A DNA stretch of 46,041 bases, from the UHGV virus genome UHGV-1457062; one strand, given 5' to 3'. Below the pieces are notes generated by a model. It was not told the DNA's origin. It saw nothing but the letters and a program-made list of their open reading frames with translations, and did not search any database. Below are positions 8,791 through 20,936 of this stretch, piece after piece; the first letter of the stretch is position 1, and each line of letters begins with the position of its first letter. A program made the position numbers and the translations under genes. This DNA comes from a virus.

Positions 8791-8811
8791 AATGGTGCCG
8801 ATAATAGGAGT
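8791..8811 (-). repeat. 21-bp copy of the thrW tRNA-Thr(CGU) 3' end (att junction remnant)
   Basis: aatggtgccgataataggagt is identical to 20889-20909; reverse complement is the acceptor/T-arm 3' end ...ACTCCTATTATCGGCACCA. Confidence 0.65.
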
Positions 8812-8953
8812 AAAACACTCGATTAATCTCGTGTTAATGCCATCACCTACGACCATTACTAATTGATTGAATCTTATAGAAAAATCATCATTTTCTATGC
8901 GTCACAATCAATTTTCACATTACAAACGCTCCGACACTTTAGCCGGAGATTTT

Positions 8954-10231
8954 ATGAGATACAAGCCTAACCAATACTTAATCTGTGATTCTTACGGTAA
9001 CTACTATTTAAGGATCACGCTGCCTGTGTATATGCAGCCCTTTTTTGAAGGAAAAAGGACGTTTGTCAGAAGTCTGCACACAAGTAATCTTCGTGTTGCA
9101 CGTAGAAAGCGTGATCAGATTGCAGATGAATACCATTGCTTACGGGAGAGTGTTGCCCCTGTAAACAGCACAATAGAAAACACGCTGGAACTGTTACGCA
9201 GTAAGGCTAAATACGCCAAAACAGCTACCAGAATGCAAGATACAGCGTCTTCGTGTCCGTCATTGCTTAAAATTCTTGAAATCTACCTGACAATTAACAG
9301 CACGAAGAAGAAGCCAGCCACTTTAGCTAAGGCAAGAAAAGCGGTAGAGATGTTTCTCTCCTACCGTAAAAAGCCTGATATTGCATTGCAAGATGTAAGC
9401 CGCACCACTGTTACAGGCTGGATTGAACACATGCAAAAAACTCTTTCACAACAATCAATTGCAAATTATATCAGCCCAATGGCCCAGCTATGGGAATTAG
9501 CTTCATCACGTTACCACGATGCGCCAGAAAGGGCGCTCTCCCCCTGGCGAGGGCATAGGCTTGATGTGGCACAAAGTAGAGAGAGCTACGAGGCATTTTC
9601 TAACAAAGAGCTATTGCAGGTGTTGCAAGTATTTTCCGGTAATTCAGCAGAAAACAAAGAAATGATGGCTTTGTGTCTTATCGGTTTATATACAGGTATG
9701 CGGATCAATGAGATAGCAAGTCTCACAATAGACGATGTGAAAGAGATCGAAGGTGTGCTGTGTTTTGAAATCACACAGGGAAAAACGAAAGCTGCGGCAC
9801 GTCTTGTGCCTGTGCATAGCCTTATCACTCCGTTGGTGTTGTCGCTGCGTGAAAAGCCTCACAATGGCTTTTTGTTCTATCACGCCAGCATTACAGAGCG
9901 TGCTGATGGTAAACGTTCCACGTGGCATACGCAGAGATTTACAAGAGCTAAACGAAAGGCTTTAGGGGAAAAGGGAACAGAAAGGAAGGTGTTTCATTCT
10001 CTGAGACACGGAGTAGCACAGCTTCTTGATCGAAATCAAATTCCAGAAGACAGGATCGCCCTTCTCCTGGGCCATACACGCGGCAATACAGAAACATTCC
10101 GCACATATAGCAAAAATGCAGCTTCTCCAATAGAGCTTAAAAAATATATTGAGCTTTTACGCTACCCTGAAATAGAGAAAGGCTTATCAATCAATAAAAA
10201 ATCAAATTTAAGGCGTAAAACAACGCTATAG
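8954..10231 (+). CDS. int: tyrosine site-specific integrase
   Basis: ORF 8867-10231; GGAG RBS before ATG at 8954; C-terminal catalytic-domain motifs (...TGMRINEIASLTIDDV..., HSLRHGVAQLL, LLGHTRGNTETFRTYSKN). Confidence 0.85.
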   Translation: MRYKPNQYLICDSYGNYYLRITLPVYMQPFFEGKRTFVRSLHTSNLRVARRKRDQIADEYHCLRESVAPVNSTIENTLELLRSKAKYAKTATRMQDTASSCPSLLKILEIYLTINSTKKKPATLAKARKAVEMFLSYRKKPDIALQDVSRTTVTGWIEHMQKTLSQQSIANYISPMAQLWELASSRYHDAPERALSPWRGHRLDVAQSRESYEAFSNKELLQVLQVFSGNSAENKEMMALCLIGLYTGMRINEIASLTIDDVKEIEGVLCFEITQGKTKAAARLVPVHSLITPLVLSLREKPHNGFLFYHASITERADGKRSTWHTQRFTRAKRKALGEKGTERKVFHSLRHGVAQLLDRNQIPEDRIALLLGHTRGNTETFRTYSKNAASPIELKKYIELLRYPEIEKGLSINKKSNLRRKTTL

Positions 10232-10305
10232 ACGTAATAAAGAGGCTTCAATATAGATTGGTAGCCTCTTTTATGATTATCTCGCTACATCGTTCTTTAT
10301 AGGGA

Positions 10306-10962
10306 TTATTTCACTTCTCCGTCATACGTCGGAAGGGTGTCTTTAGTGGTGCTGGCTGTTCCTGCATTGGTTGGCACTTGGCTTTTTACCTGTCCGCCTG
10401 TGCTCTTAGGTGATGCGGTCTTTACAGCAATAGCGTTAGTAGTTGCATAACTCACTAATCTTATCTGTTCGAACTGCAAATCAAACTGTAAAGCTGATTC
10501 TGTTTTATATTCGTAGTCAATGCCTGTCAGAATCATATTATCAAACGTCTTATGCTCTGTGCTTACAATAATAGGCTGTCTGGCATTCATTATTTCATCA
10601 AGATAAGCAATAGCCTGTGAACACCTGTTACCGTTCACCCCTGCACTTGATAGCATATCACCACGTAATGCTAATGGTGTTTCTGTAATAATGCCTGAAA
10701 GCATAAGTTTATTATTCTTGATCCTGACATTATCAGATACATCATTACCATCCTGCACAGGATACGATGTAACATCGGCAGAACGTGAAACCTTAGTTGC
10801 CGGAACAGCGTCAAAAGTAATAGCTTTATAACTGGCTATCGTTGATGCATTCTCGTTATTCAGGTTGCTACATATAATGGCAAATCCGTTATCAGATTTA
10901 ACCTTGCTGTTAGATGTATTAATGTTAGATGTGCTGTTGATCTGACTTTCTTTGATAGCCAT
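10306..10962 (-). CDS. hypothetical protein (218 aa), Ser/Thr/Asn-rich
   Basis: Long ORF last in a co-directional block; no recognised motif. Confidence 0.55.
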   Translation of the reverse strand: MAIKESQINSTSNINTSNSKVKSDNGFAIICSNLNNENASTIASYKAITFDAVPATKVSRSADVTSYPVQDGNDVSDNVRIKNNKLMLSGIITETPLALRGDMLSSAGVNGNRCSQAIAYLDEIMNARQPIIVSTEHKTFDNMILTGIDYEYKTESALQFDLQFEQIRLVSYATTNAIAVKTASPKSTGGQVKSQVPTNAGTASTTKDTLPTYDGEVK

Positions 10963-11035
10963 TTATATTAATCCTTGTGTAATGAGCGGAAAGCAATAAA
11001 TATTGCCCCCGCTTTATTATTAGTTATCGTTAAAC

Positions 11036-18500: not shown

Positions 18501-19010
18501 GTGACCTACCGTTACATCCATTTATCACATAACATCTGTGCAATGATCTTCTAAAAGTGTTTCTTGCTACCAAAATTAAACATCTAAAACAGGCTTAAAT
18601 TCAATGTAATTGATGATTAATCCCTGTGTAATTCCTACGTAAAAATTCAATGAAAAGTAGCTTAAAAGTGCAATGTTAGCTTTCTTCACTTTTACATCAC
18701 TTTCGCTGTGCCTTGTGTAATGCGGCATATAGCGCATCACTGCAAAATTGTTGCTCAATAAACGTTCTATCATTTGTCGAACAAGTTTCTTTAATGCAAC
18801 AAAAAATTATTTTTTCAAAATAAACACACTATTTAATAGCTTGCTAATTTTACCAAAACGTAACTACATGATTCTCATGCAAGACGTGTAGTGATAAAGC
18901 AGGCTAAATCACCACACTAAAAACCTTCGAATTTCGTAGTGAAAAAAGTCCTTTACACACCTAATCAACACGATCAATAATCACTACACACAAATCAACA
19001 CAGAAGGAAA

Positions 19011-19568
19011 ATGAAAATGGCTAATATTGGATACATTAGGGTATCGACTGTCCAACAAAACACAGACCGTCAATTAGCTGGAGTAACTCTTGATAAAGTC
19101 TTTGAAGATAAAGCGTCAGGCAAGAATACCCAGCGCCCACAGTTTGAGGCAATGATGAACTATGTGCGTGAAGGTGATGTTTTGCATGTTCACAGCATTG
19201 ATCGACTTTGCCGTAATACAGCCGACCTACTGGCAACGGTTGAGCAATTAACAGAGCGCGGCGTGTCTGTGCATTTCCATAAAGAAGACTTTAAGACAGG
19301 GAAGAACTCTCCCGCAGGGAATATGATGCTCACAGTGCTTGCAGCAGTGGCACAAATGGAACGTGAAATGATGCTTGAGCGGCAGCGTGAGGGGATCGCC
19401 GCAGCTAAGGCCGCTGGACGTATAGCAAAACGTGGTAATGGAAAAGCAATTGATCGAGCGGGAATTGTTGCCGCTCTCGCGAATGGTGGATCAATTCGGA
19501 GCGTAGCAAAAGATTTCAGTGTCAGCACACAGACGGTGCAACGTATCAAGAAAGAGCAGGAAGCGTAA
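19011..19568 (+). CDS. serine recombinase (resolvase/invertase family)
   Basis: N-terminal IGYIRVSTVQQNTDRQ catalytic motif, C-terminal HTH; about 185 aa; alternative start at 19017. Confidence 0.85.
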   Translation: MKMANIGYIRVSTVQQNTDRQLAGVTLDKVFEDKASGKNTQRPQFEAMMNYVREGDVLHVHSIDRLCRNTADLLATVEQLTERGVSVHFHKEDFKTGKNSPAGNMMLTVLAAVAQMEREMMLERQREGIAAAKAAGRIAKRGNGKAIDRAGIVAALANGGSIRSVAKDFSVSTQTVQRIKKEQEA

Positions 19569-19908
19569 TGCCTCCTGATATTTGAGAATTGTCGCTGCGT
19601 GGACCTGACGCCGCTGATCTTCGCGTTAAACATTGATCACGTCTGCGCCGATTTCAGAGAAAAAGACAGTAACTGAACTCACTATGAAGGCTAAACGTAT
19701 CTTTACACTTGATGAAAACGTTCAAAAAACAACCTAACCCCAAAATTCAACAAATTGCAACACATTGTTTTTAAAAGAAAATTAAATCTACATCAAATAT
19801 TGGTTGACGTAGATTGAGGTGAATAGTAGACTATTAGGGTAAATTACCACCCTTGTAACATCATTTAATGCATGTTCTAATCTTCCTATCGTAAAACCGG
19901 AGGAAGTT

Positions 19909-20067
19909 ATGCATTTACTTTCAAAACATCTTCACACTATTCACTTTCTCGTTATTGATGTATTCGTTGTGGCTATTAGTTACCGCATTTGCATCGCTTC
20001 CAGTGAAGAGATGGACGCTGTTGCAATTATTGCTCAAGCAATGGCGATGTTAACTAAACGACTTTAA
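19909..20067 (+). CDS. hypothetical 52-aa hydrophobic peptide
   Basis: Manually found ORF with GGAGGAAG RBS and upstream TTGACG/TAGACT promoter-like hexamers; single predicted TM helix. Confidence 0.25.
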   Translation: MHLLSKHLHTIHFLVIDVFVVAISYRICIASSEEMDAVAIIAQAMAMLTKRL

Positions 20068-20888
20068 TAATTTCACTATCAGGTGCATAAACACATCTTT
20101 GATCGCTGGATGTGTTATGCGCCTACTGGTGATTCAATCCTTAAGCCATTTCAACTCACTAAGGAGTTTTCTTTCTTCGTTCTCTCGCTGTTTACGCTCT
20201 AGCCAGGCTTTTCCTTCTGGCGTAGACAGGAACTTACGAGCGTGAATCTTGCGGTTATTACGTTTGATAGCTGCAATGTTTTTCATCGTGTGCCTCTGTA
20301 TTCATATGAAAATTAACAAGTTACATACTACACAGGAAGGCTACGCATAAAACACAATACAAGTAAAGATACATTTTCAAGACAATAGGAGCCATAAAGC
20401 GCCTTTGATGGTTATACCAAAAAATAAGCGCCGTAGGCGTATCCACTAAAAAGGGCTTTTTCACAAAAGCTATGAAGTCTTAGCAGTTCTTCTCTTATCA
20501 GGCACCCGTTGTACTCCGGTGGACGAAACCGTGCTAGAGCTTGATTCTTTCCCGATCAAGTTAGGTTTTGAAGAGGTGGGCTTTAATCCACTATGCACTT
20601 AAAACTCTTCCCATCATTTAGCCTGTTTATCCTCTGCAACGTCTCACGACGTGTAGCATCATTGGACACCGCGCCAGGTGTGGAACATCTTGCTAAGAGT
20701 TTTGGTAGAAGGTTTAGAGACGGTGGCACGTCTTCCAGCTTCAAAGGAACTTGTTACGAGGTTGAGCCTGTGAACTACTCGCCCATACGTGTTACACTAC
20801 CAAAGCCCATAACAACGTATAGGCGTTTGTAAGTGATAACAGAAGATACAATTTCTTAGAGAAGTTAAGCTAAGTTATTGATTTTCTT

Positions 20889-20936
20889 AATGGTGCCGAT
20901 AATAGGAGTCGAACCTACGACCTTCGCATTACGAAT
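20889..20936 (-). repeat. 46-48-nt copy of thrW tRNA-Thr(CGU) 3' portion (anticodon loop to CCA); P22-type att core, not a complete tRNA
   Basis: Reverse complement reads ATTCGTAATGCGAAGGTCGTAGGTTCGACTCCTATTATCGGCACCA; 5' half of the tRNA absent (sequence diverges at 20937). Confidence 0.7.

Follow-up and report, generated by a model that had tools for sequence, protein, structure and literature searches.

A probable phage satellite at thrW of Escherichia coli, with virion genes related to those of virulent phAPEC8-like myoviruses

The subject of this study is a 12-kb integrative element at positions 8791-20936 of the virus genome UHGV-1457062 (46,041 nucleotides (nt), referred to as the window), where it lies between the vat island and a P22/CUS-3-like prophage. 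We conclude that it is probably an intact phage satellite, which would hijack virulent phAPEC8-like myoviruses of the Stephanstirmvirinae (Phapecoctavirus and Justusliebigvirus). A first-pass annotation of the same DNA had described its central part as a block of orphan genes and had recorded no recognisable capsid gene. Both statements had to be abandoned, since the region 10306-14996 was found to encode a capsid protein of 343 amino acids (aa) with the HK97 fold (by matches of its family to PF03864 and by Foldseek), a tape-measure protein (TMP), and a Dit-like protein homologous to the baseplate-hub protein BhuB. Moreover, the protein and DNA links that were found all point to the Stephanstirmvirinae, which are virulent myoviruses of about 150 kb. 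It is the capsid, tape-measure and baseplate-hub genes that identify these phages, and not the neighbouring P22-like prophage, as the likely helpers.

Results

Capsid, tape-measure and baseplate-hub genes

The block 10306-14996 is a virion module, read leftward on the minus strand from 14996 to 10306 as one operon, in the order of an open reading frame (ORF) of 65-79 aa, an ORF of 127 aa, the capsid gene (343 aa), an ORF of 65 aa, the TMP gene (633 aa) and the Dit-like gene (218 aa); the coordinates of these and all other features are collected in Table 1. The TMP was 32% identical to the TMP of phAPEC8 (gp104, 662 aa; E 6e-62) over 450 aligned columns, which cover its C-terminal ~400 aa, and it had matches in 134 phage records, nearly all of them phAPEC8-like myoviruses. 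The Dit-like gene adjoins the TMP gene in the element, as in the phages, and its product shares 61-65% aa identity with that of the Phapecoctavirus gene located immediately downstream of the TMP gene (gp103 in phAPEC8), and 24% identity (E 8e-9) with gp78 of phage ICP1, which is BhuB itself.

The capsid assignment was approached from the family as well as from the fold. Among 15 members of the capsid family, 11 matched PF03864 (Phage_cap_E), the best at 2.6e-9, and the protein of the element was 23% identical to the major head protein of phAPEC8 (pairwise E 7e-4). Its AlphaFold model was of low confidence (pLDDT 56) and was used for the fold class only; when compared with the PDB by Foldseek, the top 50 matches were indeed all HK97-fold shells, headed by the ICP1 capsid (8g1r_A, E 1.9e-8). 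A tblastn search of 50,697 phage records with the capsid protein gave no match, which shows that the gene is not a recent loan from any sequenced phage. The 96%-identical variant of the element in strain 95-3322 served as the reference for ratios of nonsynonymous to synonymous substitution (dN/dS). In this comparison all genes were intact, with no pseudogenes, and the main genes were under purifying selection, their dN/dS values ranging from 0.03 to 0.20 (0.20 for the capsid gene, 0.05 for the integrase gene).

The 127-aa protein may be proposed, weakly, as a head decoration protein, considering the position and size of its gene. Its only profile match in the PDB was phi92 gp123 (E 0.64), alignment to phage decoration proteins by hhalign gave an E of 0.0025 at a probability of 12%, and its AlphaFold2 model was unusable (pLDDT 44). 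Matches to PF26210 (PhiTE gp211), precomputed for the small upstream protein of distant relatives, were not reproduced for the element. Scans of the element ORFs of at least 45 aa with Pfam and PHROG profiles revealed no terminase, portal, prohead protease or head-tail connectors, and the element ORFs yielded no primase or conjugation genes in such scans. The absence of terminase, portal and conjugation genes, which had been claimed before, was therefore confirmed.

A DNA block shared with the proposed helper phages

Just past the stop codon of the serine invertase gene, the element contains a non-coding block of 83 bp that is ~81% identical to ~60 phage records, with a core of 39 bp in which 37/39 positions match. 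In the phages, this block spans the inner boundary of a terminal repeat of ~328 bp. The terminal redundancies of WPEC4 (Thailand) and dw-ec (Indonesia) measure 328/329 bp and have identical boundaries, that of KKP 3954 measures 309 bp, and for BME3, a related phage, a direct terminal repeat of 342 bp has been reported on the basis of PhageTerm (PMC12210895). The inner boundary, where the packaged phage genome ends (...TTCGCGTT), falls inside the shared block, for which the simplest reading is that it would be a copy of the terminase recognition or cleavage site. When the upstream regions of the phAPEC8 late genes were compared with those of the element, no defensible shared motif emerged.

Phage proteins that combine Rep domains of the element family with a nuclease domain

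The phages Mt1B1_P17, BI-EHEC, muut and inny were found to encode proteins in which the DNA-binding domains of Rep proteins of the element family are fused to a predicted T5orf172-like endonuclease domain. At the DNA level, a stretch of 353 bp that takes in the 5' leader of the element rep gene together with its first 112 codons was 99.2% identical in Mt1B1_P17, where the match includes 41 bp of the leader, and 94.6% identical in BI-EHEC. The Mt1B1_P17 protein (QNJ49226, 328 aa) has three parts. Its residues 1-104 are 100% identical (104/104 aa) to the element Rep's DNA-binding domain, whose residues 1-104 are counted from the ATG at 16817 and correspond to 9-112 of a longer ORF of 194 aa. Residues ~119-226 are 75% identical (~90% in nucleotides) to the Rep DNA-binding domain of a glyU-type sister element of E. 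coli, and residues 230-326 match the endonuclease family phrog_681 (2.4e-18). The proteins of muut and inny retain the second domain and the nuclease domain but differ in the first domain, which in muut has 75% identity to a Citrobacter element's Rep and in inny 52% identity to that of a Cronobacter element. Among the full-length nuclease matches listed, phAPEC8, ESCO5 and nieznany did not occur.

A precedent for this architecture is Odn of ICP1, in which an N-terminus like that of PLE RepA (42% identity) is fused to a T5orf172 nuclease, and which cleaves the PLE origin at the iterons (PMC8263062). The E. coli phage proteins and Odn are alike in joining an N-terminal domain from a satellite replication initiator to a C-terminal homing-endonuclease-like domain of the T5orf172/MUG113 type (GIY-YIG superfamily). 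They differ in that two Rep-derived domains, taken from two element variants, follow one another in the proteins of the E. coli phages, with a first domain that varies by phage; in addition, their identity to the satellite Rep reaches 100%, as opposed to 42% for Odn. Judging from the architecture, the chimeric proteins are predicted to be Odn-like nucleases aimed at the origin of the element.

At the same phage locus, the Justusliebigvirus PaulScherrer carries a gene of 61 aa that has 84% aa identity, and 95.8% nt identity over 167 bp, to a small regulator, ribbon-helix-helix-like in appearance, encoded upstream of rep in the glyU element. The gene is bas60_0101 (L046:1515-1700), its glyU-element counterpart is located at L006:5964-6140, and VEcB carries it too. 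It may be a stolen satellite repressor, in which case the locus may be regarded as a variable 'anti-satellite' locus. That phages keep such genes implies that the elements hurt those phages. E. coli Mt1B1, the isolation host of Mt1B1_P17, was absent among the matches listed for the rep/regulator module.

Boundaries of the element and its relation to the vat island

The 21-bp direct repeat AATGGTGCCGATAATAGGAGT has exact copies at 8791-8811 and 20889-20909 and no others in the window; matches expected by chance are 0, and the identity stops at 21 bp on either side. Between the two copies lies a unit of 12,098 bp, with a GC content of 40.9%. Positions 20889-20936 (48 nt) are identical to the end of thrW in strain CU532-9, comprising 46 nt of the 3' part of the tRNA gene and 2 flanking nt, beyond which the sequence diverges into the P22/CUS-3-like prophage. 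No complete tRNA gene was found in the whole window. The proposal that direct repeats of the thrW 3' end bound the segment was thus borne out.

Occurrence was counted in 5,426 complete E. coli genomes. The whole segment was present at 100% coverage in ~53 of them. In CU532-9 and AHB2 its immediate neighbour is an intact thrW-proA junction; the vat island flanks it at the opposite end, and there is no prophage. D8, FDAARGOS_1261, FDAARGOS_1262 and GW-AmxH19 also carry the element. These data show it to be a discrete unit and agree with its earlier description as an integrative element wedged between the vat island and the P22-like prophage. They also show that the prophage in the window is a later insertion at the same site, by which the proximal attachment site (att) was severed from the rest of thrW. 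The core from capsid to rep occurs at a coverage of at least 80% in 227 of the 5,426 genomes (~4%), and O1:K1:H7 genomes of avian pathogenic E. coli (APEC) contain a copy of the element that is 97.4% identical.

The vat island, in which vat is accompanied by a gene of the MarR family and by the decayed gene of an Arm-type integrase, was found at a coverage of at least 80% in 537 complete E. coli genomes, ten times more than the element; most of these 537 lack the 12-kb element beside the island, and its neighbours can differ. The integrase remnant (8321-8638, minus strand), frameshifted and truncated in its Arm-domain form, abuts the 21-bp repeat, reads away from it and belongs to the vat island. 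Its location beside the repeat indicates that the vat island was once an independent thrW-integrating element. Presumably, the VAT-PAI of Parreira & Gyles 2003, of 22 kb, includes the 12-kb element as well.

In a review (PMC7545054), 'PAI-APECO1-thrW' and 'PAI-UM146-thrW', of ~20 kb and 41% GC, are listed as single virulence islands. These pathogenicity islands (PAI-thrW) of APEC O1 and UM146 occupy the same chromosomal region, and their size and GC content match those of the vat island plus the element. What is listed there as one island is here divided into two units, namely the vat island, with 537 genomes and its own decayed integrase, and the 12-kb element, with ~53. PAI-thrW therefore appears to be two elements in tandem, the same presumably being true of VAT-PAI, and the present element appears to be the thrW-proximal half of PAI-thrW. 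The DNA itself is not new, and the review does not interpret this half as a separate mobile element.

Two further observations concern the number of copies per strain. The rep/regulator module (16257-17245) had matches in 648 of the 5,426 genomes, in up to five places per genome, from which it follows that many strains contain several related elements or rep modules. In APEC E19019, besides a chromosomal copy of the element, a copy of 94% coverage, interrupted by IS3, is found at 27989-45072 of NZ_CP126938.1, a 166-kb record listed among plasmids.

A family of similar elements in the Enterobacterales

Relatives of the capsid protein, at 29-57% identity, were recovered from a second E. coli lineage and from Klebsiella, Cronobacter, Citrobacter, Enterobacter, Pluralibacter, Raoultella, Kluyvera, Kosakonia, Phytobacter, Buttiauxella, Scandinavium and Yersinia. 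The clade is small, with 60 cluster representatives among 1.84 billion at E < 1e-3. In four of the relatives, which come from E. coli, Klebsiella, Cronobacter and Raoultella, repeats of a tRNA 3' end (glyU or thrW), 20-34 bp long, form the boundaries, and the elements measure 12.7-14.3 kb. Wherever the context was available, the gene order was the same. Starting at the tRNA gene (thrW or glyU), it begins with the accessory genes together with the gene of a small recombinase (serine invertase in E. coli; a tyrosine recombinase of ~190 aa in Klebsiella and Cronobacter), and continues through ~2 kb of non-coding DNA to the regulators and Rep. These are followed by a small ORF, an ORF of ~125 aa, the capsid gene, an ORF of ~65 aa, the TMP gene and, optionally, the Dit-like gene, and the order ends with the integrase, which occupies this distal position in all relatives examined and has DUF6538 in the three for which Pfam domains were reported. 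More distant relatives were seen on metagenome contigs of 9-12 kb. Taken together, it looks like the element belongs to an undescribed family of 12-14-kb elements across the Enterobacterales; a search of the full-text literature retrieved no account of such a satellite in E. coli.

Among the distant relatives, two from different samples are stand-alone contigs of ~12 kb and nearly equal length (L044, 11,966 bp; L045, 11,964 bp), in which an integrase, an ORF of 343 aa, a TMP_3 protein, a PhiTE_211-like small protein and a capsid protein were recognised. They may be free or packaged genomes.

Comparison with known satellites

It had been noted at first sight that the element fits no gene set of P4, PICI, cf-PICI or plasmids, and the Pfam and PHROG scans led to the same result. 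The further suggestion of a new satellite family using thrW can be retained as probable, given the sister elements at glyU, although the reasoning behind it had overlooked the structural genes.

The element resembles P4 in size (12.1 vs 11.6 kb), in its tyrosine integrase at a tRNA site and in a putative myovirus helper; it differs in that no homologues of Sid, Psu, Delta, Epsilon or the alpha primase-helicase were detected among its main ORFs by the Pfam and PHROG scans. To our knowledge, P4 lacks genes for structural proteins of capsid or tail, and its helpers are temperate, P2-like phages. The integrase was the only member of the classical PICI set that the scans detected; primase, AlpA, TerS and Ppi/Rpp were not found. 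With cf-PICIs the element shares the possession of its own capsid protein in place of that of the helper. In the work of Alqurainy et al. of 2023, cf-PICIs are said to encode terminase, portal, protease, capsid and head-tail connectors, and to obtain only their tails from helpers. In contrast, the element has a capsid gene, and perhaps a decoration gene, without terminase, portal, protease or connectors, and it has neither AlpA nor a replication module of the primase type. Some cf-PICIs are reported to carry putative tmp genes (PMC12987554, Extended Data Fig. 10). Membership of P4, PICI or cf-PICI was rejected because the gene sets that define these groups are not those of the element. Its interpretation as a plasmid or an integrative and conjugative element was also rejected, as was the possibility that either the P22-like prophage or the vat island carries it as cargo.

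Likenesses to the PLE satellites are found in several parts of the element. Both are integrative elements of small size in which an origin with iterons, putative in the present element, goes with a cognate Rep, and both swap replication modules between variants. The helper of PLE, like the one proposed here, is a virulent rV5/FelixO1-like myovirus, the structural genes of ICP1 and of phAPEC8 being both annotated as rV5-like; and in both cases a phage nuclease, predicted as such in the E. coli phages, is built from the satellite Rep DNA-binding domain and a T5orf172-type domain. Nonetheless, the integrase of PLE is a large serine recombinase, whereas that of the element is a tyrosine recombinase at a tRNA gene. 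The Rep of the element is a winged helix of the HTH_36 / Rep-O-like kind, as opposed to the RepA_N/DUF6945 type of Odn and PLE RepA. The element has a capsid gene of its own, whereas in PLE it is the capsid of ICP1 that is remodelled, by means of the TcaP scaffold (title of PDB 8g1r). As a further likeness, both encode their own TMP and an adjoining protein of the BhuB family. PLE11 encodes a TMP, a tail assembly chaperone and a BhuB with 20/20/41% identity to their ICP1 counterparts, and its TMP and BhuB were shown experimentally to replace the phage versions in chimeric tails of PLE virions (PMC12987554).

Homologues of the tail assembly chaperone, NixI, LidI and Rta were not detected in the element, with no direct comparison with PLE proteins being made; on the same basis, it has no large serine integrase and no TcaP/NixI/LidI set, and neither its host nor its proposed helper is that of PLE (Vibrio and ICP1, respectively). 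Membership of PLE was rejected on account of the tyrosine integrase, the other Rep fold family, the own capsid gene and the different host. By its gene content, the element would best be described as PLE-like in its tail module and in the counter-defence that it appears to have provoked, and cf-PICI-like in owning a capsid gene.

Proposed life cycle

The following scheme is offered with a confidence in the individual steps that is lower than that in the satellite interpretation as such. The element resides at thrW, inserted by its tyrosine integrase, as seen from the att repeats, the intact integrase gene, and the occurrence of occupied and differently occupied sites. On infection by a helper it would be excised and replicated by Rep from the iteron origin, for which there is indirect support in that the phage nucleases use exactly this Rep DNA-binding domain. 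The leftward operon (14996-10306), if expressed at this stage, would supply the capsid protein, perhaps the decoration protein, the TMP and the BhuB-like hub. The capsid protein is envisaged to form a small shell for 12 kb on the portal, with the scaffold and protease of the helper; for comparison, P4 packs 11.6 kb in a T=4 shell. Packaging would be carried out by the helper terminase, which would act on the 83-bp copy of the phage terminal-repeat boundary, and, by analogy with PLE11, the tails would be chimeric, with the sheath, tube and baseplate of the helper built around the TMP and BhuB of the element. Helper assembly would thereby be diverted or blocked, and the host population protected. 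Some phages would answer with the nucleases described above, whose architecture is that of Odn and whose action on the element origin is predicted.

In its widest form, this interpretation holds that a widespread and so far unrecognised family of Enterobacterales satellites lives on the 150-kb Stephanstirmvirinae, forming its own small capsid on the portal and packaging machinery of the helper and assembling chimeric tails around its own tape-measure and hub proteins, while the phages fight back from a dedicated variable locus with modular nucleases, in which origin-binding domains stolen from several satellite variants are stacked, or with a stolen satellite regulator; it would be an independently evolved E. 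coli counterpart of the PLE-ICP1 pair. To this composite claim we give about an even chance of being correct. If it is, the hybrid strategy of an own capsid on a helper portal combined with chimeric tails has not been seen before.

Alternative explanations

Several points weigh against the satellite interpretation. Only the anatomy of the element is shown directly, from which its excision, replication, packaging and interference with the phage are all deduced. The scans revealed no terminase, portal, scaffold or protease. The capsid protein is only ~23% identical to that of the presumed helper, and its proposed co-assembly with a foreign portal and protease would be unusual; the two AlphaFold models, of the capsid and the 127-aa protein, are both of low confidence. 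The Rep-like protein is short and is also labelled as a LexA-family regulator in RefSeq, and the iterons could be operators. As regards the 83-bp block, it could be a promoter or regulatory site instead of a packaging site; the outer boundary of the phage terminal repeat was searched for in the element and not found; the phage termini were deduced from the ends of records and from one PhageTerm report on a related genus; and the block occurs only in two E. coli lineages that share the whole invertase-block module, which amounts to one acquisition. The Pfam matches (MUG113/T5orf172) of the nuclease domain of QNJ49226 are weak. Finally, the nine matches in IMG/VR look, judging from contig names and sizes, like prophage calls in isolate genomes, with no virome or particle-derived copy among them.

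Of the competing explanations, the one that deserves most attention, unlikely as we consider it, is that of a phage-defence island which moves by its integrase alone and does not undergo packaging, with its TMP, BhuB and capsid protein acting as poison or decoy subunits and its replication serving gene dosage. Such an island would naturally combine structural homologues of one phage group with the lack of a packaging enzyme; interference with tail assembly is a known strategy (Tai, PMC11364771; Rta of PLE11, PMC12987554), and a phage counter-nuclease would be expected just as much. It is, however, difficult to see why a decoy should be a complete capsid gene of a distinct, old lineage that is retained everywhere, why the size should be tightly conserved at 12-14 kb across genera, or why the element should bear a copy of the phage terminal-repeat boundary. 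Nor did PADLOC detect any defence family above noise, its two marginal matches being to winged-helix and CARF-like models (E 1e-3 to 9e-3). It is to be noted that known satellites defend their hosts too, so that this explanation is largely a subset of the satellite model from which transfer has been removed.

The remaining two explanations would account for the element by temperate phages. Its phage-type genes, their location at a tRNA hotspot that also holds the integrase remnant of the vat island and a full prophage, and the inclusion of the element in IMG/VR prophage calls are all compatible with a decaying prophage of a temperate myovirus in which the integrase, the replication module and some virion genes happen to survive. 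In such a remnant, however, one would not expect the lack of pseudogenes, the dN/dS of 0.03-0.2 for the main genes, or the same minimal set of genes, in the same order and size, in E. coli, Klebsiella, Cronobacter, Raoultella, Yersinia and metagenome contigs; and its tail genes have their nearest phage relatives in strictly virulent phages of 150 kb. The recurring minimal architecture together with the purifying selection rules out a prophage in random decay, and a remnant of any kind is very improbable. Hardly more credible, and in our estimate slightly less so, is a satellite with a temperate helper, such as the adjacent P22/CUS-3-like phage or another resident prophage. The element does adjoin a P22-like prophage at the same att site, and the helpers of most enterobacterial satellites known (P4, PICI, cf-PICI) are temperate; against this, its tail genes are of myovirus type, whereas P22-like podoviruses, as far as we know, have no tape-measure protein or contractile-tail baseplate, it occurs without the prophage, and all the DNA and protein links found lead to the Stephanstirmvirinae. 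A satellite of these virulent phages therefore remains the explanation that we prefer.

Were this explanation true, an arms race like that of PLE and ICP1, the best-studied case of a satellite and a virulent phage, would become testable in the most tractable of hosts. A satellite that contributes only the capsid shell, tape measure and hub would represent a new division of labour with the helper, and part of a long-known "pathogenicity island" would have to be reclassified as a phage parasite. There is also a practical side, as phAPEC8-like phages (ESCO5, ESCO13, 536P1 and others) are therapy candidates against APEC and extraintestinal pathogenic E. coli (ExPEC). Since APEC/ExPEC lineages carry the element next to vat, it could explain unexplained resistance and gaps in host range, and phages with the chimeric nuclease would be predicted to be the better therapeutic choice.

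Replication, recombination and accessory modules

Table 1 Features of the integrative element in the window, in order of position
Feature	Position	Strand	Evidence and remarks
Distal att	8791..8811	.	21-bp copy of thrW 3' end; doubles as tRNA-proximal junction of the older vat island
Tyrosine integrase (DUF6538, SAM-like and catalytic domains)	8954..10231	+	PF00589 2.7e-17, PF20172, phrog_1 1e-32; intact
Dit-like baseplate-hub / tube-initiator protein (BhuB homologue), 218 aa	10306..10962	-	PF21821 5e-28
TMP, 633 aa	11036..12937	-	phrog_16051 1.3e-71; dN/dS 0.17
65-aa ORF between capsid and TMP genes	12972..13169	-	ORF of ~62-66 aa there in relatives L003, L006, L007, L027; dN/dS 0.04; no family match
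Major capsid protein (HK97 fold, gpE family), 343 aa	13323..14354	-	PF03864, phrog_29 1e-4, Foldseek
127-aa protein, possible head decoration protein	14369..14752	-	Position and size as decoration gene upstream of capsid gene in phAPEC8, ICP1
First small ORF of structural operon, 65-79 aa	14757..14996	-	ORF of ~64-77 aa at same position in relatives; no family match
102-aa ORF downstream of rep	15949..16257	-	Annotated in RefSeq; no family match; fast-evolving, dN/dS 0.62
Rep-like putative origin-binding protein (N-terminal winged helix, acidic C-terminus)	16257..16817	-	phrog_270 / Rep-O-like 1e-8, HTH_36
Two small ORFs upstream of rep, 56 aa and 60 aa	16871..17245	-	Annotated ORFs
Iterons, five copies of ~23 bp (GG-TAACAGnnTTCTGTnGGGGTG)	18355..18493	.	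Putative origin
Hin/Gin-type serine recombinase (invertase/resolvase), 183 aa	19017..19568	+	PF00239 1e-38, phrog_125 2e-62; dN/dS 0.03
83-bp block shared with Stephanstirmvirinae	19572..19654	+	Candidate mimic of packaging (terminase) site
Two small accessory ORFs, 52 aa (+) and 50 aa (-)	19909..20286	.	RefSeq annotation; no family or PADLOC matches
Proximal att	20889..20936	-	46 nt of thrW 3' end and 2 nt, identical to CU532-9 thrW

The tyrosine integrase (PF00589), the Rep-like gene with its five iterons and the serine recombinase (PF00239), all of which had been recognised in the first-pass annotation, were confirmed. The DNA-binding domain of Rep and the iteron sequence vary together between family members. 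In strain 95-3322, the iterons are identical to those of the element and the Rep DNA-binding domain is 97% identical, whereas the glyU element has different repeats (TTCCTACCTACCCAAGAAATGAG) and a different Rep DNA-binding domain. By our own reading of the alignment, the 56-aa ORF upstream of rep looks like a ribbon-helix-helix regulator; its counterpart in the glyU element is the one that shares 84% identity with the PaulScherrer gene. It was also observed that in strain 95-3322 the 102-aa ORF and rep are separated by two additional genes (of 76 and 127 aa; L041:7756-8428), and that the 60-aa ORF of this strain is divergent (dS ~1.1, compared with 16257-16900 of the window); the regulatory and replication region is thus a mosaic between elements that are otherwise 96-97% identical.

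The serine recombinase possibly serves multimer resolution. In the relatives from Klebsiella and Cronobacter, the Hin-type enzyme gives way to the tyrosine recombinase of ~190 aa (L003:3835-4395, L007:3907-4485), and such a non-orthologous replacement at the same position suggests a shared role such as multimer resolution.

An Rfam scan of the element returned only a chance snoRNA match (E 0.055), and in a consensus scan for promoters and terminators such sites were no more numerous than in shuffled sequences. Upstream of the structural operon, in a gene-free stretch of ~950 bp, a perfect 16-bp inverted repeat (GAATATCAGATCTTAG / CTAAGATCTGATATTC) with a spacer of 33 nt is found at 15136-15200, followed by a terminator-like hairpin at 15206-15223; the inverted repeat may be an operator or attenuator.

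The rest of the window, 20937-46041, is the P22/CUS-3-like (Lederbergvirus-type) prophage, which is 94% identical over 52-62% of its length to JEP4, phiv205-1, CUS-3 and Kapi1, and in which an ORF of 662 aa (21465-23453) is the tailspike candidate.

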